Below, piece by piece: positions 566 to 61,801 of a stretch of 64,000 nt of DNA (its first letter is position 1; every line of letters begins with the position of its first letter). The position numbers and the translations under genes were made by a program. Under the pieces are notes generated by a model. It was not told where the DNA came from. It worked only from the letters and a program-made list of their open reading frames with translations, and did not search any database. The stretch is from Clostridia bacterium (GTDB taxonomy: Bacteria; Bacillota; Clostridia; Christensenellales; UBA1242). The stretch covers positions 4,648-68,647 of the forward strand of contig JAFSVX010000010.1 in NCBI GenBank assembly GCA_017444785.1, written 5' to 3'.

Positions 566-1693
566 ATGATAACTGTCAGACAAATAAACAGCAAAAAAGA
601 CTTTAAAAAATTCGTCAAGTTCCCAGCTTGGCTCTATAAGGGCAATCCATACTATGTTCCACCATTTGAGCAGGACGAACTTGATTTAACAAATCCAAAG
701 AAAAATGCATGCTTTGAAGAATCCGAGGGCGCCTACTTTTTGGCAGAGGACGAAAATGGCAAGGTTGTTGGAAGAATTGCCGGAATCATTTCACACGCAT
801 ATAACCAAAAGAATAACACCAAGCGTGCAAGATTTTCCCGCTTTGAATGCATAGACAACAAAGAAGTTGCAGACAAACTTTTAAAAGCTGCAGAAACTTG
901 GGCAAAAGAGAATGGTATGGACAGTATCCATGGCCCACTTGGTTTCAACGATTTGGAGCGTGAAGGCCTTATGGTTGAAGGCTTTGACACCATGGGTTGC
1001 TATTTGACAAGCTATAACATGCCATATTATCAAAAATTCATCGAGGACAACGGTTACAGGCCTGACGCTCGCTGGGTTGAATGGCGAATTGGCGTTCCGG
1101 ACAAGCAAAACGAACGTGTTGTTAAAGTGGCTGATATGGTTGCAAAACGCTATGGTTTTTATGAAAAGCAATTCAAAACCTCAGGCGAAATCATTGACAA
1201 ATATGGCCTTAAATTCTTTGAACTTTTGGACGAGTGCTATAAGGATATCTATGGCACAATTCCTTTCAATAAAAAACTTGTAGCGCAGACAATCAAAGCG
1301 TTCAAACTTATAATCGATAAAAAATATGTCAGCCTGATTTTCAATAAAGAGGACGAACTGATTGGTTTTGGAATTGGCTTCCCTTCCCTTGCAAAAGCCC
1401 TCAATAAATCAAAAGGAAGATATCTTCCATTTGGAATATTCAGACTGCTTAGAGCAATCAAACACCCAAAAGTTTTGGAGCTTGGACTTATCGCAGTCAA
1501 GCCAGAATATCAAAAGCAAGGCGTGACCGCTCTGATTATCAAAAACATGCAACAGCGCATGATTGAAAACAAGATTGCCTATTGCGACACCGGTTGCCAG
1601 CTTGAAGACAACACGCAAGCCATTGCCGCTCTTGACATGTTCGACCGCGACCTGATCCGAAGAAAGACTTGCTATATAAAAGAAATGAAATAA
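566..1693 (+). CDS. GNAT-family N-acetyltransferase-like protein
   Basis: ORF 479-1693 opens with TTG; ATG 566 follows a GAAGG RBS. C-terminal KPEYQKQGVTALII resembles the GNAT acetyl-CoA motif (Q/R-x-x-G-x-G/A). Confidence 0.6.
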   Translation: MITVRQINSKKDFKKFVKFPAWLYKGNPYYVPPFEQDELDLTNPKKNACFEESEGAYFLAEDENGKVVGRIAGIISHAYNQKNNTKRARFSRFECIDNKEVADKLLKAAETWAKENGMDSIHGPLGFNDLEREGLMVEGFDTMGCYLTSYNMPYYQKFIEDNGYRPDARWVEWRIGVPDKQNERVVKVADMVAKRYGFYEKQFKTSGEIIDKYGLKFFELLDECYKDIYGTIPFNKKLVAQTIKAFKLIIDKKYVSLIFNKEDELIGFGIGFPSLAKALNKSKGRYLPFGIFRLLRAIKHPKVLELGLIAVKPEYQKQGVTALIIKNMQQRMIENKIAYCDTGCQLEDNTQAIAALDMFDRDLIRRKTCYIKEMK

Positions 1694-1764: not shown

Positions 1765-2250
1765 TTAAGCAACTTTTGCAAGAGTTAAAACTATTGTGGT
1801 ATTACCATCAACAATTGTTACAACAATTTTACTGTCTTTATACTCTGCAGTAGCAGTGCCTGAACCAAATGCTGATTCAGATATTGTAAAATTCAATTTG
1901 TTGTCTTTGATTTCCCAAGTTCCACATTCGGTATACTCAGCATTTTCAGCATAAGTTGCAGCTTTCAGTTTGTTATCATCAGTTAATTGATATTTTAAAA
2001 ATACTCCACTTAACTGATTGTATTCATAGTTTTCTGCACCAGTTCTGTCGTCGCCTTTTGTATGCAATTCATTGAATCTTTCATATGTATAGGTTGTTGT
2101 ATCCTCTTCTTGAGTACGTGATACTGATACAGTATACCAGCCACCAACCACATCGGATTTCTTCAAACCATCCTTGTTACATCCAGCAAGACCGAATGCA
2201 AGTGGTAAAACAAGCACAAATGCGAGCAATGAATAAATGAATTTTTTCAT
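1765..2250 (-). CDS. Secreted lipoprotein of unknown function
   Basis: ATG 2248-2250 preceded by GGAGGA; MKKFIYSLLAFVLVLPLAFGLAGC is a lipoprotein signal peptide with lipobox L-A-G-C. The longer ORF start at 2310 lacks an RBS. Confidence 0.7.
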   Translation of the reverse strand: MKKFIYSLLAFVLVLPLAFGLAGCNKDGLKKSDVVGGWYTVSVSRTQEEDTTTYTYERFNELHTKGDDRTGAENYEYNQLSGVFLKYQLTDDNKLKAATYAENAEYTECGTWEIKDNKLNFTISESAFGSGTATAEYKDSKIVVTIVDGNTTIVLTLAKVA

Positions 2251-2406
2251 ATTTTTTTCCTCCTTGAATTGATTGTAGCACTTCAAAAATTTTATGTCAA
2301 ACAAAATCATTGTCTAAATTAAAAAGATTGTAAATTTTTGTATTATTTTATCTTTTTAAAAATTTAGGATTACCTTAAATATTTTTAAATGTAGAGATTT
2401 ATTGGA

Positions 2407-28450: not shown

Positions 28451-28855
28451 ACAAAGGAAAGTGAGATATACGGCAACAACAACACTCCGCATATCTATAA
28501 GTATTATAACATGAATACTTAAATATTGCAATACCCTTTTTAAAATTTCTTTAATTTTTTTACAAATATTTCAGCCCGCTCGCTCACTCGCTGACCTACC
28601 CACCGCATCTTCAGTTATCTTTTTGTTTTATCCTTTAAAAAACCATTTATTATACGCAAAAATATCTGACTAACATTTTTATAATACTACCCAATTCAAA
28701 TAACATTGTTTAAAGACGAACTTATAGTGATAATTATTAAACAAAATCCGTATATGGTTAAATAAAAATGCAGAAGAAGGCATAAAACATATAAAATTTT
28801 ATTTATTCATATAACGTTGTTTAAAGGCGAAAATTGACGATTAGACAAGGCTCAT

Positions 28856-28904
28856 AAAAAAATCCAGGCACGACTTTATTTTCATAAATGAGTGTTTGGA
28901 TTTT
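28856..28904. repeat. Conserved-core hairpin module, copy A
   Basis: A-run, ATCCAGGCAC, core GACTTTATTTTCATAAATGA, GTGTTTGGAT, T-run; two G.U pairs on the plus strand. Confidence 0.8.
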
Positions 28905-29016
28905 GAATATGTTTATTCAAATAACGTTGTTTAAAGGCGAAAATTGTGCTGTTGACTTTTATATTTATTCATATAACGTTGTTTCAGGGTGCAAGTTTGC
29001 GTATATAACAAGGCAA

Positions 29017-29070
29017 CAAAAAATCGCGACGCTCGATTTTATTTTTCATAAATGAGTGTGTCGCGATTTC
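29017..29070. repeat. Conserved-core hairpin module, copy B
   Basis: ATCGCGACGC, core TCGATTTTATTTTTCATAAATGA, GTGTCGCGAT. Confidence 0.8.
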
Positions 29071-29120
29071 GTAGTTAACGCAGTTATTTAATTCACGATT
29101 TACTCAATTCAAATAACGTT

Positions 29121-29248
29121 GTTTAAAGGCGAAAATTGTGCCAATAACGAGGCACAAAAAAATTCCAACGCATGATTTTATTTTCATAAATGAGTGTGTT
29201 GGAATTTTTTTAGTAACATAGTTAGTGGTGCAATTTTCGCCTTTAAAC
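29121..29248. repeat. Complete nested palindrome unit abutting and overlapping the rplQ stop codon (contains hairpin copy C, 29156-29211)
   Basis: Outer arms GTTTAAAGGCGAAAATTGTGCC (29121-29142) and GGTGCAATTTTCGCCTTTAAAC (29227-29248): 22/22 pair on the plus strand with two G.U. Inner ATTCCAACGC/GTGTTGGAAT flanks the conserved core. Confidence 0.85.
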
Positions 29249-29752
29249 CAATTCGACAATAGCAAGTTGTGCATTATCCCCACGTCTTACAGAAGTCTTA
29301 ATAACGCGAGTATATCCACCAGCTGTGCCTTTTTCAGTTGCACGGTTTACATATTTTGGTGCAAGATCTTCAAACAATTTTACGATAAGTGGATATTTGA
29401 TATCCCCTTTTCTTGCCTTGAATGCAGCTTTTTTCTCGCCCTTAACACGTTGTTCTTGGCGATCTTCAAGCATACCAAGTAACTTTCTTCTTGCAGCAAG
29501 TTTTGCAGGACCATCTTTTGAAATTGTAACTTTCTTTTCTTTTCCGCTGGCATCTTTAGTAGCTTTTTCTTCAGTTACAACATCTTGATAGTTCTTCACA
29601 GCCAAAGTGATGCATTTTTCAGCATATCTTGCAGCTGCTTTTGCTCTGTCAAGAGTGGTTTCTATTCTGCCATACCAAAGTAAATCACTTGCAAGTCCGC
29701 TTACCAGTGCAAGTCTTTGGTCTGTTGGTTTACCTAATTTTTGTGTATTCAT
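29243..29752 (-). CDS. rplQ: 50S ribosomal protein L17 (169 aa, with internal/C-terminal expansion)
   Basis: QRLALVSGLASDLLWYGRIETTLDRAK... and GGYTRVIK; last gene of the alpha operon. Confidence 0.95.
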   Translation of the reverse strand: MNTQKLGKPTDQRLALVSGLASDLLWYGRIETTLDRAKAAARYAEKCITLAVKNYQDVVTEEKATKDASGKEKKVTISKDGPAKLAARRKLLGMLEDRQEQRVKGEKKAAFKARKGDIKYPLIVKLFEDLAPKYVNRATEKGTAGGYTRVIKTSVRRGDNAQLAIVELV

Positions 29753-56903: not shown

Positions 56904-59223
56904 TTATGAATTCTTTATATATTTATTATACCCTGCTCTGTCACTTGTCGTTTGAGTGAATGAATCTGTGATATATGTTCCAACGCTTGTGATTGTGTCT
57001 TTCACATAAACTGTTGTGGCATTTGCGAGCAAATAGGAATCTGATGAATTTAGACCTGCTATCGTTGATGAATCTATTATTACTTCTGTAAGGCTACTGC
57101 AACCCAAAATTGCGCTATCTCCTATGTTGATCAAACCACTTCCTATTGTTATTTTTGTAAGACTACTACAACCGTTAAATATCCAACCAGCAATACTTGT
57201 TACACTATCCGGAATTGTAATTTCAATAAGTGAACTGCAACCTTCAAATGCAACAGTTCCAATACTTGTTAAAGTATTTGATAATATGACTTCTGTAAGA
57301 CCACTGCAACCGTTGAAAGCAGAAACTCCAATGCTAAGTACACCACTTGGAATATTTATGCTTGTAAGTCCAGTACAATTTTGAAATGCATTATTACGAA
57401 TAAACCTGGTATTTCCATTTATTCCACACGATGTTATAGAATTATTTTTTGCATAAATAAGCAATATATATGCATTTATATTGTTTCCAAGATATTTTGC
57501 ATTATCATATTCATTACAAATCAATGATGTGCAACCATTAAATACATAATCTCCAATACTTATAAGGCTGTTTGGAATCGTAACATTTGTAAGTGAACTG
57601 CAATCCCTAAATACTGAATCTCCTATACTTGTCACACCTTCTGGTATAATAACACTCGTCAGGTCTGAACAACTCCAAAATGCACACTCTCCAATGCTTG
57701 TCACACTGCTTCCAATTGTCACACTGCTTACTTTTGGGCTGTATGATGAGTTTGTGACATAAAACAAATTTGCCGGTATGCTTTCAACATTATTACCAAA
57801 TACAACTCCAATTCCATCCCCGTTTGCGCCTGCCCTATAGAATAAATTTTGTGGTACTGAGGCTATGTTAATTGCATTATAATATATGGTTTCTAGACCA
57901 TAACAACCACGGAATGCACCTGTGTCAATGCTTGTCACACTGTCTGGGATTGTTATACTTGTCAGTCCACTACAACTGCTGAATCCCCAAGATTTAATCC
58001 TTGTCACACCATCTGGAATTCTCAATGCCCCAGTAAGCCCGCTACAAGAAGAAAATACGCCATTTTCAATTCTTGTCAAACCACTTCCAAATTTCAGACC
58101 TGTAAATCCTGTGCAACCACCAAATGCAGAATCTTCAATAACTATCACACTGTTTGGAATTGTCAATGTCCCTGTAAATCCTGTGCAATGTAGAAATGCA
58201 CTCCATCCAATTTTTTTAATACAACCGGGAATTATCAATGTCCCAGTAATCTCACTGCAGTTTTGAAAGGCACCACCTTCAATGCTTGTCACATCTTGAT
58301 TTTCATGTTGCCTTGGAATAACAACTTCACCAGTTGGTGTTCCTTGTTTACTTACAAAATGCACATTATTACTTATATAAAAATATAATTTATCAAGTGT
58401 TGCAGTTTTTGTATAAAGTCTTACTGTTTCAAAATTATTTACTGTGGCACTTTGAACTGCCGTTGGAGTATAAATTGTGTCACCGTCTTCCAGATACTGT
58501 GTGCATTCTGCATCTTTGAAATATCCAGGACAATTGTTATAATCAAGTGGTAAAACATCTGTGTCGTAAACAAACTTACCATCTGTTAAATCCAATGCTG
58601 AAACCGCAGCAACTTTTCCATCAACATAATATACAACATAACTGTCATAAAGTTGTGAACTGTTGCTGTTTATTGTTGTCGTTGTTGTTTGTCCTTCAAT
58701 AACTGTTCCACCTGCATTATATATCGCAGCACCAGTTTCCGCTGCATTTCCGACAATCGCCCCGCCATTAAGATTAACTGTTCCACCTTCTTCAACATAG
58801 ATTGCACCACCACAAATTGCTTGGTTAAACATTATTGTTCCGCCATTCATGGTAAAAGTACCACCACTTGCAACATATACTGCCCCACCATATGTCGCTG
58901 ATGAACCTTTATATGTTCCACCATTCATCACATATGAACTTCCTGCACCAACATAAATTGCTCCGCCCTTTTCAGACATTGGGGCAAGTGCTGTACCATT
59001 TTCTTCAACTTCCTGCGCTGATGCATAATAAACACCAGGGATAGTTCTATCCTTGGTGTCCTGCTGGTTCTCAACCACTGTTGGTGATGTGGTTGCCTTG
59101 TTGTTATTAACAATTTTTACGGAAAAAGTAAAGATAAGCGCAGCAACAACTATCGCTATACTTATTAGTATCTTATTAAGCTGCCCCCCCCCCGATTTTT
59201 GCTGTTTTTACCTTGTTTTTCAT
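56904..59223 (-). CDS. BspA-like LRR surface protein (paralog 2); N-terminal signal-anchor exon out of frame at a poly-G tract
   Basis: ORF 56904-59078 (724 aa) has the same head (GGAIYV repeats) and tail (AGYNKYIKNS) as the 1295-aa paralog. RBS GGAGAAGG plus ATG 59221-59223 encode MKNKVKTAKI, then G10. The main frame continues QLNKILISIAIVVAALIFTFSV. Confidence 0.75.
59184..59193 (-). repeat. Homopolymeric G10 tract (C10 on plus strand) in the 5' coding region
   Basis: Counted directly: C at 59184-59193. G9 would be in frame. Confidence 0.95.
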
Positions 59224-59319
59224 ACCTTCTCCCTGCCTTTTGTGTTCCCACAATATTTTTCTGCCAACGGCTTTTCTGGGTTTTTCACCCCAACTTATTG
59301 ACATCTTTTGGATACCTAT

Positions 59320-59348
59320 ATTCTATATTTTTATTCTGCCCTTGTCAA
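59320..59348 (-). promoter_or_regulatory. Promoter of the 724-aa LRR protein gene
   Basis: Reverse strand TTTGACAAG with TTGACA (59343-59348), 17 nt, TAGAAT (59320-59325); same -35 context as the paralog promoter. Confidence 0.6.
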
Positions 59349-59442
59349 ACAATTTTTATCAATTTTGACAAAATTTTTATGAAATTTTTCGCCTCTCTAC
59401 CGAACCGGCGAAGAAAACTCGCCGCATCTTTGGCAAAATTTA

Positions 59443-59516
59443 TGTATATAACAAGGCATAAAAAAATTCCAACGCTCGATTTTATTTTCATAAATGAGTG
59501 TATCGCGATTTTGTAG
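59443..59516. repeat. Conserved-core module, copy D (arms no longer complementary)
   Basis: Close to 28999-29074 by eye (roughly 85-90 percent). However the 5' arm ATTCCAACGC is of copy-C type and the 3' arm GTGTATCGCGAT is of copy-B type. Confidence 0.75.
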
Positions 59517-59570
59517 TATATACATATAACGTGAATTAAGGTGAAAATTTTGATGCAGAAGAAGGCACTA

Positions 59571-59620
59571 AAAAATCCCAGGCAAGCGCATATTTACATA
59601 CGTAACTGTCTGGGATTTTT
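59571..59620. repeat. Hairpin module, copy E (variant core)
   Basis: ATCCCAGGCA/TGTCTGGGAT arms (one G.U on plus) around AGCGCATATTTACATACGTAAC; preceded by ATGCAGAAGAAGGCA, also seen at about 28768. Confidence 0.7.
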
Positions 59621-59648
59621 ATAGTAACAAATTTCTTTTTCACGTCAA

Positions 59649-59790
59649 TTCATACAAATAACGTTGTTTAAGGTTTAGAAAATGTGCAATAAGAAAGAAA
59701 CAAAAAAGTTCCACGCCCGATTTTACTTTCGTAAATGAGTGTGTGGAACTTTTGCAGTTTCTGCACTTAGTGTGCGTTTTGTAAGCCTTA
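59649..59790. repeat. Complete nested palindrome unit abutting the rplA stop codon (copy F)
   Basis: Box TTCATACAAATAACGTTGTTTAAGG; outer arms 59670-59701 / 59757-59789; inner AGTTCCACGC / GTGTGGAACT around CCGATTTTACTTTCGTAAATGA. Confidence 0.8.
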
Positions 59791-60468
59791 AACTTTGACT
59801 TTAATTCCTGGGCCCATTGTAGAAGCAACAACTATACTCTTTAAATATGTTCCCTTTGCAGCTTGTGGTTTTGCTTTAACAATTGCATCAAGAAGCACAT
59901 CAAAGTTCTCTTGAAGTTTCGCAGCACCAAAGCTCTTTTTACCGATAACGCAGTGAATGATACCAAATTTGTCAAGACGATACTCAACTTTACCAGCTTT
60001 GATATCCTTTATTGCTTTTGCAACGTCAGGTGTAACTGTTCCACTTTTTGGGTTTGGCATAAGACCACGAGGTCCAAGAACTCTTGCAGCTCTACCAACA
60101 ATACCCATCATGTCAGGTGTTGTAACGCAGGCGTCAAAGTCAAGCCAACCTTCTTTAACGATTTTATCAACCATTTCTTCAGCACCAACATAGTCAGCAC
60201 CTTCAGCTTTGGCGATATCAGCCTTATCACCTTTTGCGATAACAAGGACTTTCTTTGATTTACCAGTTCCGTTTGGAAGAACTATTGAACCTCTTACTTG
60301 TTGGTCAGCGTTCTTAGGGTCAACGCCAAGCTTAATATGAACTTCAATAGACTCATCAAATTTTGCAGTTGCAGTTTCAACAGCAAGGGCAAGACCTTCG
60401 TTCACATCATACTGCTTTTGAGCTTCGATTTTTGAAGCAGAAGCGTTATAATTTTTTCCGTGTTTCAT
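59788..60468 (-). CDS. rplA: 50S ribosomal protein L1
   Basis: 226 aa; [15 protein letters not shown]... conserved L1 sequence. Confidence 0.97.
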
Positions 60469-60482
60469 AGCATAGTCCTCCC

Positions 60483-60914
60483 TTAGTCAACCACAACAAT
60501 TCCCATAGATCTTGCAGTACCAGCGATCATGCTTTCAGCGGCCTCAAGGCTTGCAGCGTTAAGGTCAGGCATTTTTTGCTCTGCGATCTTACGAACTTGT
60601 TCTTTTGTGATTTTTCCGACTTTTTCTTTGTTTGGTTTTCCACTTGCCGTTTCAATACCAATAGCTTTCTTAATTAAAACTGCTGCAGGAGGAGTTTTAA
60701 GAACGAAAGTGAATGAACGGTCTTCATAGATTGTCATCTCAACAGGGATAATAAATCCGTCTTGAGCTGCAGTTTTGTCGTTAAACTCTTTAACGAAAGC
60801 TGGAATGTTGATACCATGAGGTCCAAGTGATGAACCAACTGGAGGACCAGCGGTTGCCTTACCAGCTTGAAGTTGAAGTTTAACTACGGCTTTAATTTTT
60901 TTAACAGGTGCCAT
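60483..60914 (-). CDS. rplK: 50S ribosomal protein L11
   Basis: ATG 60914 ([27 protein letters not shown]) with AAGGAGAA RBS; the ORF-track start 60977 is upstream of the RBS. Confidence 0.95.
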
Positions 60915-61148
60915 ATTCAATTCTCCTTTAAGTTTTTCTGTGGTCTGTGTGAGGCATACAAAATTTACCTCTGCCACATATATTTAAAACATTTAGCTTA
61001 CACCCTACTGCAAGTCAAATGATTTAAAACTAAATAATTTATTTCAATCCATTCTCGAATATAAATATCGATAACGGGATTTAAAGGCTAAATTCAGATT
61101 AAGAACAATCTTATTTACTAGAATTCATAGATTTAATTACGCATTTAG

Positions 61149-61264
61149 GGCGTCAGAATGGTGCAATAAGAAAGAAACAAGAAAGCTGAACGCACGACTT
61201 TATTTTTATAAACGAGTGTGTGAAACTTTCGCAGTTTCTGCACTTAGTGTGCCGTTATCACGCC
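61149..61264. repeat. Nested palindrome unit abutting the nusG stop codon (copy G, inner stem decayed)
   Basis: Outer arms GGCGTCAGAATGGTGCAATAAGAAAGAAAC / GTTTCTGCACTTAGTGTGCCGTTATCACGCC; core GACTTTATTTTTATAAACGAGTG; ends 1 nt before TAA 61265-61267. Confidence 0.75.
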
Positions 61265-61801
61265 TTAAATTACTTCGATTTGGGCGAAGTCAAGGTCAAC
61301 CGGCGTCTGACGTCCAAACATCTCTACCGAAACCTTGCATTTTTGATTAGCAGTGTCAACTGAAAGGACATCACCAACGAAACTCTCAAGTGGACCAGCA
61401 ATAACTTTAACTTTATTGCCAACCTCAATTTTGAGGTCAATAACAATCTTTTCAAGTTGCATCTTTCTTACTTCCTCATCAGGAAGTGGAAGAGGTCGTC
61501 CCGCAGGGCCAACGAATCCAGTAACTCCACGAGTGTTTACAATTGTGTGCCACAAATTGTCAGTATAGCGCATCTTGATAAACACATAGCATGGAAACAT
61601 TTTTCTTTGCACAACTTTTTTCTTGCCATTTTTCTCTTCAATGGCATCTTCCATAGGTATCTTTACTTCAACAATGAAATCTTGAAGTTTGTTATGGTCG
61701 ATTGTCTTATAAAGATTCTCTTGAACCATACTTTCATAGCCAGAATAAGTGTGAAGCACATACCACTTTGGATCTTCTTTTAAAACATCACTATCACTCA
61801 T
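61265..61801 (-). CDS. nusG: Transcription termination/antitermination factor NusG
   Basis: 178 aa; WYVLHTYSGYE NGN domain and C-terminal KOW. Confidence 0.95.
   Translation of the reverse strand: MSDSDVLKEDPKWYVLHTYSGYESMVQENLYKTIDHNKLQDFIVEVKIPMEDAIEEKNGKKKVVQRKMFPCYVFIKMRYTDNLWHTIVNTRGVTGFVGPAGRPLPLPDEEVRKMQLEKIVIDLKIEVGNKVKVIAGPLESFVGDVLSVDTANQKCKVSVEMFGRQTPVDLDFAQIEVI

Follow-up and report, generated by a model that had tools for sequence, protein, structure and literature searches.

The bacterial MITEs that fold as RNA hairpins include ERIC/IRU (127 bp) in enterobacteria, Correia/NEMIS in Neisseria and RUP in the pneumococcus. These elements are about 100-170 bp long, carry terminal inverted repeats, insert in TA-rich contexts and lie where transcription units end, and they have been reported to influence termination or the stability of the mRNA. 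REPINs, another class of hairpin-forming repeats, have been described mainly from Proteobacteria. They are doublets of REP sequences that form hairpins and are mobilised by RAYT tyrosine transposases (Bertels & Rainey 2011, PMC3116915).

Here we compare with these systems a repeat family that is represented in a 64,000-nt stretch of Clostridia DNA (hereafter, the window). Like REPINs, these repeats are short, non-coding and multi-copy, form a long hairpin that is kept by compensatory changes and cluster by insertion into or beside existing copies, and in both cases a single-stranded intermediate is proposed (PMC3116915). Unlike in REPINs, however, the arms (e.g., GTTTAAAGGCGAAAATTGTGCC) are not REP palindromes and lack a conserved GTAG-type tetranucleotide, conservation is highest in the tip and the internal loop rather than in the arms, the units lie across stop codons with a constant orientation, and the examined loci yielded no RAYT gene. 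Compared by description only, the ERIC, Correia and RUP elements are similar in size, terminal inverted repeats, TA-rich contexts and location at transcription-unit ends. They differ from the present family in that here no clear target duplication is seen in the Clostridia copies and the family spans two phyla. In the present family, the terminal repeats vary by locus and the centre is conserved, which is the opposite of what DDE-type MITEs show. The unit has the ends GTTTAAAGG...CCTTTAAAC, and conservation is concentrated between them, in the centre.

Repeat units in the window

The neighbourhood of rplA is encoded entirely on the minus strand and consists of secE, nusG, rplK and rplA, followed by a gene for a BspA-type leucine-rich-repeat protein. 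Accordingly, "downstream of rplA" denotes lower coordinates, and the plus strand is antisense to rplA, rplQ and nusG. The GC skew of the plus strand of the window is negative throughout. The window encodes SpoIIE and the closest metagenome-assembled genome (MAG) encodes SpoIIP, which places the organism in the spore-forming Clostridia.

Unit boundaries were taken from a covariance model, R1, that was built from Clostridia copies, and are slightly wider than those in the original prediction, which was made from the letters of this stretch. The R1 search of the window yielded seven units, all on the plus strand, and unit C, with its diverged tip, makes eight units or relics in 64 kb. They are confined to three places: after rplQ (four), after rplA (three) and after nusG (one). 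The motif TTTCRTAAATGAGTGT occurs 6 times on the plus strand of the window, at 28880, 29044, 29182, 59486, 59727 and 61204 (the last with 2 mismatches), compared with 0.19 occurrences expected by chance. The relevant features are the following.

28688-28720, 28768-28782 and 28918-28969: further relics of the rplQ array, recognized from direct-repeat families and motif positions
28820-28936, plus strand: third unit of the rplQ array, with the inner stem TCCAGGC/TTTGGA and without the 3' junction and 3' arm (R1, 50.5 bits)
28989-29106, plus strand: second unit of the rplQ array, with a TCGCGA core, 3' arm lost; the closest relative of copy D (R1, 78.5 bits)
29121-29249, plus strand: intact rplQ unit with a TTCCAAC core, its 3' arm covering the rplQ stop codon at 29243-29245 (R1, 136.9 bits)
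29243-29752: rplQ (L17), the last gene of the alpha operon, 30 kb from rplA
56904-59078, minus strand: BspA-type leucine-rich-repeat gene, 724 aa, after rplA
59437-59538 (approximate), plus strand: copy D, decayed and furthest from the gene (R1, 58.7 bits)
59532-59652, plus strand: unit C, with a variant apex, found as inverted repeats, with its own outer stem (59532-59547 / 59637-59652)
59654-59665, plus strand: unpaired 5' leader ACAAATAACGTT, preceding the 5' arm of unit A
59666-59794, plus strand: unit A, intact, 129 nt (R1, 132.5 bits, full length)
59696-59760, minus strand: inner-stem (P2) hairpin followed by UUUUUU on the gene strand (-18.8 kcal/mol, z = -3.7)
59788-60468, minus strand: rplA, ribosomal protein L1 (Pfam PF00687 Ribosomal_L1, E = 1.7e-68)
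60483-60977, minus strand: rplK
61071-61097, plus strand: solo leader and 5' arm relic ATAACGGGATTTAAAGGCTAAATTCAG, read directly in the sequence
61143-61271, plus strand: intact nusG unit of the unit A subfamily (R1, 118.7 bits)
61265-61801, minus strand: nusG

The original prediction held that members of the family are found again past rplA, all oriented the same way with respect to the gene, and that a full nested unit lies at the rplA stop codon. Units A, C and D bear out the first of these statements, and unit A, with the predicted inner arms AGTTCCACGC (59707) and GTGTGGAACT (59741), bears out the second. Unit A is composed of an outer stem (P1), a junction helix, an inner stem (P2, GTTCCAC/GTGGAAC) and a conserved tip. 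Its outer arms (59666-59693 / 59766-59793) form 22 Watson-Crick pairs and exactly the four G.U wobbles that had been anticipated, with 2 mismatches and no A.C. The predicted fold is -58.8 kcal/mol (z = -11.5) on the plus strand and -37.4 kcal/mol on the minus strand. The rplA stop codon (59788-59790) and the last codon are within the 3' arm, with the stop 7 nt inside the unit. Orthologues of unit A were found in two related contigs, L076 and L077.

The variant-core hairpin that had been noted at 59571-59620 is the intact inner stem of unit C, with 14-nt arms (59571-59584 / 59607-59620) of 93% complementarity. The tip of this unit is diverged and shortened, and its fold is -35.3 kcal/mol (z = -5.1). 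Its 5' arm, GTGAATTAAGGYGAAAATTTTGATGCAGAAG, persists as a distal relic after rplA in L073, indicating that unit C is older than unit A. A short motif, ATGCAGAAGAAGGCA, is shared by the two arrays as had been observed, occurring in the window only at 28768 and 59553. A leader motif, (C)A(A/T)ATAACGT(T/G), precedes the units at 28808, 28918, 28970, 29110, 59525 and 59654, is found also in L007, L008, L019, L071 and L073, and has no partner on the 3' side.

The third place occupied in the window is the end of nusG, where the 3' arm of the unit covers the stop codon (61265-61267) and the inner stem is imperfect; orthologues of this unit are present in L071 and L073. The solo relic at 61071-61097 is conserved in L073 and L076, and in L076 the whole unit is still present.

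Two independent metagenome assemblies with an identical L1 (contigs L001 and L002) are identical to the window, base for base, over units A, C and D. An assembly artefact as the source of this array is ruled out by the identity of the three assemblies, which are, for the same reason, uninformative on polymorphism.

A strand-specific hairpin maintained by compensatory change

The intact Clostridia units are 128-131 nt long, and the consensus fold of ten aligned copies, obtained with RNAalifold, is one long hairpin. The outer stem P1 comprises 26-28 bp. P1 and P2 are separated by an internal loop whose 5' strand reads AAGGC(A) and whose 3' strand reads GTAGTTAACGCAG; within this loop, AAGGC and GTAACGCAG are conserved. 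P2 comprises 13 bp, namely, an A-run paired with a T-run, 5-6 variable pairs and then ACGC/GUGU including a conserved G.U pair. On the tip side of P2, there is a 1x1 mismatch, a C-G pair and a symmetric 3x3 loop with tandem G.A pairs, and the hairpin ends in UUUAC/GUAAA closed by a tetraloop.

In the ten Clostridia copies, 96% of the cells at paired positions are indeed paired, compared to 75% in shuffles and 34-48% in slid controls, and both sides have changed in 30 of the 45 pairs, compared to 8-12 in the slid controls. Thus, the hairpin is maintained by compensatory change. The strand on which it is maintained is also apparent. The Clostridia alignment contains about 39 G.U cells against 2 A.C cells; in 35 of the 36 copies compared across the two phyla, the strand with GTAAATGAGTG folds more stably than the opposite one, the mean fold over the 36 copies being -46.1 kcal/mol for the forward strand and -33.8 kcal/mol for the complement, a difference of about 12 kcal/mol; and the tandem G.A pairs and the conserved G.U are present on the forward strand only. 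One strand, the plus strand in the window, is therefore the folding strand.

Two other accounts of these patterns were considered and rejected. A mutational artefact of replication or transcription as the cause of the wobble bias is at odds with contig L007, where the bias is seen in both of two units, and also with the Bacteroidota copies, which are biased in either orientation relative to genes. A small open reading frame that starts from the conserved ATGAGTGTG lacks a ribosome-binding site, and the "peptide" alters with the stem.

A fold of this kind would also be expected if the units were genes for structured small RNAs of about 100-130 nt, expressed from the forward strand and acting as cis-antisense or protein-binding RNAs, with copy D as a pseudogene. 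Strand-specific folding in both phyla, the restriction of the conserved G.U and the tandem G.A pairs to the forward strand, the conservation of the internal loop and tip together with covarying stems, as in functional RNAs, and the conserved unpaired leader ending in ATAAC directly upstream of many units are all compatible with such genes. However, no convincing promoter was found upstream of the units, where the sequences have no -35/-10 pair in common; the 3' arm enters coding sequence and is not followed by a terminator; and the units have no Rfam match. Furthermore, the copies are gained and lost at orthologous sites and are stacked in decaying arrays, which is unusual for RNA genes, and in Bacteroidota their orientation relative to the neighbouring genes is mixed. 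Altogether, we consider small RNA genes to be an improbable identity for these units.

Placement on stop codons and a probable role in termination

All 11 intact Clostridia copies that were tested are convergent with a gene whose stop codon falls within the 3' arm, at a depth of 2-28 nt. The abutted genes are unrelated and encode L17, L1, NusG, an RpoC-like protein, SpoIIP, a P-type ATPase, a CofE-like protein and a pseudouridine synthase. In contig L007, two units located 1.4 kb apart have opposite orientations, each being convergent with its own gene. Hence, orientation follows the gene and not the replichore, and this opposed pair contradicts an orientation set by the replication strand in the manner of IS608.

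In the Clostridia copies, all of which have an A-run of 6-8 nt 5' of P2, the gene strand continues from P2 into a tract of 6-8 U. At the rplA locus, the inner stem and the UUUUUU tract at 59696-59760 constitute the first terminator-like signal past the gene. From these sequence features, the Clostridia version can be predicted to serve as the intrinsic terminator of the abutting gene, a use that would explain the fixed orientation. The A- and U-runs that flank P2 are absent from the Bacteroidota copies. A consensus terminator scan of the window left P2 uncalled on account of its loop, which exceeds 8 nt.

Resemblance to intrinsic terminators thus consists of an A-run flanking P2, then 6-8 U, at the ends of operons (rplQ, rplA, an rpoC-like gene), whereas the differences are that the "loop" is a conserved, structured tip of 24-30 nt, that the stem is nested within a second stem of 26 bp, and that the opposite strand folds better. 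The last of these is odd for a structure selected as the terminator of a gene: the gene-strand hairpin is weaker by about 12-21 kcal/mol than that of the antisense strand. The stronger antisense fold fits a single-stranded intermediate of transposition or recombination, or else an RNA made from the forward strand, but not a structure whose evolution was driven solely by termination of the gene.

Another reading would be that the units are ordinary intrinsic terminators accompanied by local tandem duplications, immobile and alike only through convergent constraints. Apart from P2 and its U-run, this possibility can draw on the position of the units, which occupy the place of a plain terminator in contig L072. 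It is, however, very improbable, given that at least ten gene ends without relation to one another, and also the two phyla, have the 27-nt tip and two junction motifs in common, that the unit length is fixed at 128-131 nt, that cores at unlinked loci are 92-100% identical, and that differing unit types are found at one and the same site among relatives with 90-97% identical L1.

For the terminator role proposed above, a further difficulty is that selection acting only on termination would not account for so strict an overlap with stop codons. This overlap, together with the native codons contained in P1, leaves room for a more unusual mechanism that targets gene ends.

Location directly after a gene, an imperfect palindrome of 60-140 nt, a strand-specific fold and organization in arrays are also characteristic of the attC sites of integrons. 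In contrast to attC sites, RYYYAAC / GTTRRRY core sites are lacking here as judged by eye, the centre is conserved instead of variable, the neighbours are core housekeeping genes and not cassettes, and no integrase is present. Identity with attC was rejected because the core sites are absent.

Turnover of units and movement of cores

The state of the rplA site was compared among relatives whose L1 is 88-97% identical to that of the window; contig L079 was excluded because its expected rplA end is unlike the other rplA ends. The occupants of the site are as follows.

Window: unit A, then C and D
L076 and L077: unit A only
L071, L073 and L075: a different unit, with a TTCCAAC core
L078: a unit with a TCGCGA core
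L072: no unit; a plain hairpin and U6 terminator 14 nt past the rplA stop

In total, the relatives display four states of the rplA site and three of the nusG site, which shows that the sites at gene ends stay fixed while their units turn over from one close relative to another. In arrays, the units beside the gene are intact and the gene-distal ones are decayed, lacking the 3' arm or containing mismatched inner arms, as observed in L008, in L071 and in the rplQ array of the window.

Sequence identity was compared segment by segment. Paralogues of the same subtype have cores that are 92-100% identical but are only 52-79% identical in P1. Comparison of the orthologous rplQ units of the window and of a related genome, Clostridiales bacterium MAG-R002, yields 80% identity in P2 and the tip, 50% in the 3' junction, 78% in the outer 5' arm and 93% in the outer 3' arm. 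The presence of shared cores within locus-specific outer stems implies that cores move between outer stems, and accordingly, the exchange between family members that had been proposed for one copy is general. From the alignments, this movement could proceed by gene conversion or by insertion of a core into an existing frame.

Another proposal is that only a core of roughly 77 nt, from the AAGGC junction to the GTAACGCAG junction, is mobile and either enters, site-specifically, a hairpin at the stop codon of a gene or builds one there. The outer stem would then come from local sequence, via an inverted duplication of the gene end or via template-switch "perfecting" of a quasi-palindrome; the arrays would reflect successive insertions beside the gene; and the element would be of a new, gene-end-targeting kind. 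Locus-specific outer stems around shared cores speak for this proposal. So does the unit in L071, L073 and L075, in which the 3' arm consists of the last six rplA codons (GGAATTAAGGTTCGTATTTAG) and the 5' arm repeats them almost exactly in inverted form. Additional observations in the same vein are the location of the stop codon 13-28 nt inside the arm in several copies, the match of all three 5' arms in the rplQ array to the single gene-adjacent 3' arm, and the placement of the new rplQ unit between an older core and this shared 3' arm. The counterevidence is that a consensus, TTAAGGnnGAAAATTG, can still be recognized in the outer stems from one locus to another and also resembles the ends of the Bacteroidota copies (TTAAGGTGA...), so that P1 appears to be inherited with the element and not made from the target. 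Moreover, no sufficiently close empty site was found, L072 being too diverged, and we know of no enzyme that catalyzes such an insertion or hairpin-building reaction. We therefore regard mobility of the core alone as unlikely.

Copy D, a mosaic of two subtypes

Copy D (59443-59516) had been estimated by eye to be about 85-90% identical to 28999-29074, and the measured identity is 87% (66/76). Its two inner arms, as had been noticed, match different family members. The 5' arm, ATTCCAACGC, has its sole other occurrence at 29162, and the 3' arm, GTGTATCGCGAT, differs from the 29058 arm by a single G>A change that is private to copy D. As expected from this combination, copy D folds no better than shuffled sequences (z = -1.6 on the plus strand and -0.7 on the minus strand), and of its outer stem, only a 10-bp remnant is left (59441-59450 / 59517-59526).

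The characters of copy D fall into two sets. The 5' junction GTATATAACAAGGCA, the 3' arm and the T4-GTAG tail (cf. 28999 and L019) are those of the TCGCGA subtype. Within this background there is a patch of the TTCCAAC subtype, A7-TTCCAAC, with an A-run of 7 rather than 6 and three substitutions in the arm. Independent mutation is a very unlikely source of this patch because three clustered substitutions and one indel exactly reproduce the arm of the other subtype. Judged by these shared characters, copy D is a genuine mosaic in which the TCGCGA and TTCCAAC subtypes are combined.

The original prediction further suggested that copy D is a product of recombination or gene conversion between family members 30 kb apart. 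The mosaic stands, but its tie to the two copies 30 kb away does not. Beside the 5' arm, the 29162 copy reads CGCATGA, whereas copy D reads CGCTCGA, as does the distal unit in L071, so that the 29162 copy specifically cannot be the donor. The exact string A7-TTCCAACGCTCGATTTTA is found in this distal unit, at the rplA site of MAG-R002 (L071). Because both subtypes occupy the rplA site in relatives, exchange over 30 kb is unnecessary, and recombination between successive occupants of the rplA site appears, from these sequences, at least as likely a source of copy D.

Exchange had also been described as ongoing, and polymorphism of copy D among strains had been named as a check. Ongoing exchange finds no support in the sequences compared: copy D has no counterpart at the rplA site of any relative examined, and the identical strain, represented by three identical assemblies, shows no variation. 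Among 16 cores that fit the strict pattern, copy D and the L071 distal rplA unit are the only ones with non-matching arms. Mismatched inner stems are common in gene-distal units (L008 distal, L071 distal), and an imperfect P2 is present also in the gene-proximal nusG units of the window and of L073. Copy D is one visible product of family-wide swapping of cores and, alone, a minor one.

Distribution of the family and searches for known relatives

Species-representative genomes were scanned for exact matches to a 21-nt degenerate core. Multiple matches were obtained in two genomes, MAG-R002, in which L1 is 96% identical to that of the window, and the Bacteroidota genome MAG096; four further Bacteroidota MAGs contained single matches. 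There are at least 12 copies on 6 contigs in MAG-R002, and the copies in MAG096 are likewise spread over 6 contigs. A scan of metagenomes added many more copies of the Bacteroidota type and a third, longer variant with extra hairpins.

The relationship between the copies from the two phyla is evident from the full-length matches of the Clostridia-only model to the Bacteroidota copies, at 45-78 bits, and from the Bacteroidota alignment, which has the same architecture, the 27-nt tip, the AAGGC and GTAACGCAG loop motifs and the conserved G.U. In Bacteroidota, orientation relative to neighbouring genes is mixed, and about 6 of 14 copies have a 3-nt direct repeat (TTA, ATA or TAA) on both sides, a pattern that hints at a short target duplication. 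No clear target-site duplication was detected in the Clostridia copies, where the flanks continue the inverted repeat (TTAA...TTAA, CAA...TTG).

Searches against collections of known sequences gave the following results. At the gathering threshold, no Rfam 15 family matched the window or any of 17 loci drawn from the two phyla, and an E-value search of the region with Rfam produced only noise (E >= 0.47). BLAST of unit A against phage and plasmid collections returned no match, and a scan of IMG/VR returned one chance match only. In the literature, a full-text search for the core sequence retrieved unrelated matches, and keyword searches found no description of the family. It is, then, apparently a repeat family new to description that spans two phyla, Clostridia and Bacteroidota. 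No transposase or other partner enzyme was found in the window, and no RAYT gene in the window or in the related loci examined. An insertion sequence beside the L027 copy was considered as a parent element and discarded, its 21-nt inverted repeats being unrelated.

Origin and implications

The units are short, have no coding capacity and are present in many copies per genome; they have terminal inverted repeats in the form of an outer stem of 26-28 bp that differs in sequence between loci; and at orthologous rplA and nusG sites they are present, absent or replaced. These are properties of MITEs, and in our assessment, the odds tilt slightly toward a new hairpin repeat of the MITE/REPIN kind that was co-opted as a gene-end terminator. 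Under this interpretation, the three-unit array after rplA would consist of non-coding, non-autonomous hairpin repeats that are about 129 nt long when intact. Such repeats may spread and be homogenized via a single-stranded hairpin intermediate together with recombination or gene conversion between copies, and they would be retained at gene ends because P2 and 6-8 U on the gene strand provide the gene with its intrinsic terminator.

On the same interpretation, copy D would be an old, displaced unit in which a short tract of conversion took the place of the inner arm on the 5' side. Alternatively, it might result from a crossover between successive occupants of the rplA site, or from a crossover in the conserved tip that was followed by a second event. 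By any of these routes, the replacement of the arm or the crossover would have deprived copy D of its fold, and it is probably inert.

There is also a bolder combination of claims, to which we assign, as a whole, a low but appreciable probability. According to this scenario, the core of roughly 77 nt would be a new mobile cassette that is shared by Clostridia and Bacteroidota and homes, always in one orientation, to stop codons. It would be enclosed by an outer stem to which the last codons of the gene contribute, and cores would be replaced by other cores at the same site. Movement would involve a single-stranded hairpin, of DNA or RNA, and an enzyme, and the arrays would be a chronological record of insertions.

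If the co-opted hairpin repeat of the MITE/REPIN kind is indeed the correct interpretation, a family from Gram-positive anaerobes and Bacteroidota joins a field that is dominated by the proteobacterial REP/REPIN, ERIC and Correia elements. Its mechanism would be testable, given the fixed length, the folding strand, the placement on stop codons and a cross-phylum tip that something must recognise. There is also a consequence for annotation: because the last codons and the stop codon of some genes are inside the repeat, assemblies and gene callers can be misled. Finally, the locations of the units suggest that the terminators of core operons, such as the alpha operon, the rplK-rplA L11 operon and that of an rpoC-like gene, can come from an exchanged repeat.

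Relics of the repeat family and growth of its arrays

The window contains relics of the repeat family, solo copies of the leader together with the 5' arm and one junction relic, none of which was picked up by the covariance model built from intact Clostridia units:

61071-61097, relic that is kept in the relative L073 and forms part of a complete unit in L076, another unit-bearing relative
28918-28969, relic
28688-28720, relic
28768-28782, relic

After nusG in MAG-R002 (locus L071, 3095-3400), the distal unit is a near-exact copy of only the forward 5' half of the proximal unit, comprising the 5' arm, the junction, the 5' inner arm and half of the tip. At the sequence level, this partial duplicate suggests that partial local duplication is an additional route of array growth. 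In L007, a Clostridia locus, two units lie in opposite orientation, 1.4 kb apart, one following an RpoC-like gene (C-terminus ...LIPAGTGLRKYREMSPVSR) and the other a convergent CofE-like gene, and an additional truncated unit is present:

691-821, minus strand, unit
2144-2272, plus strand, unit
~846-880, truncated unit

The motif also has a third, longer variant, which shares the tip and the AAGGC/GCATAAY loop motifs with the other units but contains additional hairpins. In L035, a methanol-corrinoid methyltransferase (MtaB/MtaC-like) gene cluster lies between two inverted copies of it. The loci with this variant are:

L027, 1500-1860
L035, 1560-1900 and 6440-6790
L067, 2280-2650 (the same as L070)
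L038

A search of the whole 64 kb against Rfam returned no families at the gathering score, and no ribosomal-protein leader was detected by this search, despite the presence in the window of S10-spc-alpha operons, the rplK-rplA (L11) operon and nusG.

The region downstream of rplA

In place of rplJ-rplL, rplA is followed by a gene for a BspA-type LRR surface protein (the two genes together span 56904-60468), a gene order found also in the relatives L071 and L072. In the interval that separates the LRR gene from the repeat array, the promoter scan identified a near-consensus promoter:

59348-59320, minus strand, TTGACA-17-TAGAAT

The BspA-type LRR ORF is called from a GTG start at 59078. Between this ORF and a minus-strand ATG at 59223 that has a strong ribosome-binding site, there is a C10 run on the plus strand (59186-59195), that is, G10 on the gene strand. 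With 9 G instead of 10, the frame from the ATG would encode a signal-anchor sequence and then continue into the LRR ORF. The independent metagenome contig L002 has GGGGGGGGTG at this position. The tract may be phase-variable or a homopolymer assembly error.

A possible promoter in the conserved tip

In the Clostridia units, the tip reads nnnACA-16/17-TAAAAT on the gene strand, and was flagged by the promoter scan at 59720-59747 and 61197-61224 of the window. The Bacteroidota tip (alignment A5) includes TACTTTTG, 21 nt downstream of a conserved TTTC; this sequence is compatible with TAnnTTTG, the -7 box of Bacteroidota promoters. Going by these motifs, the conserved tip might double as a putative outward promoter.
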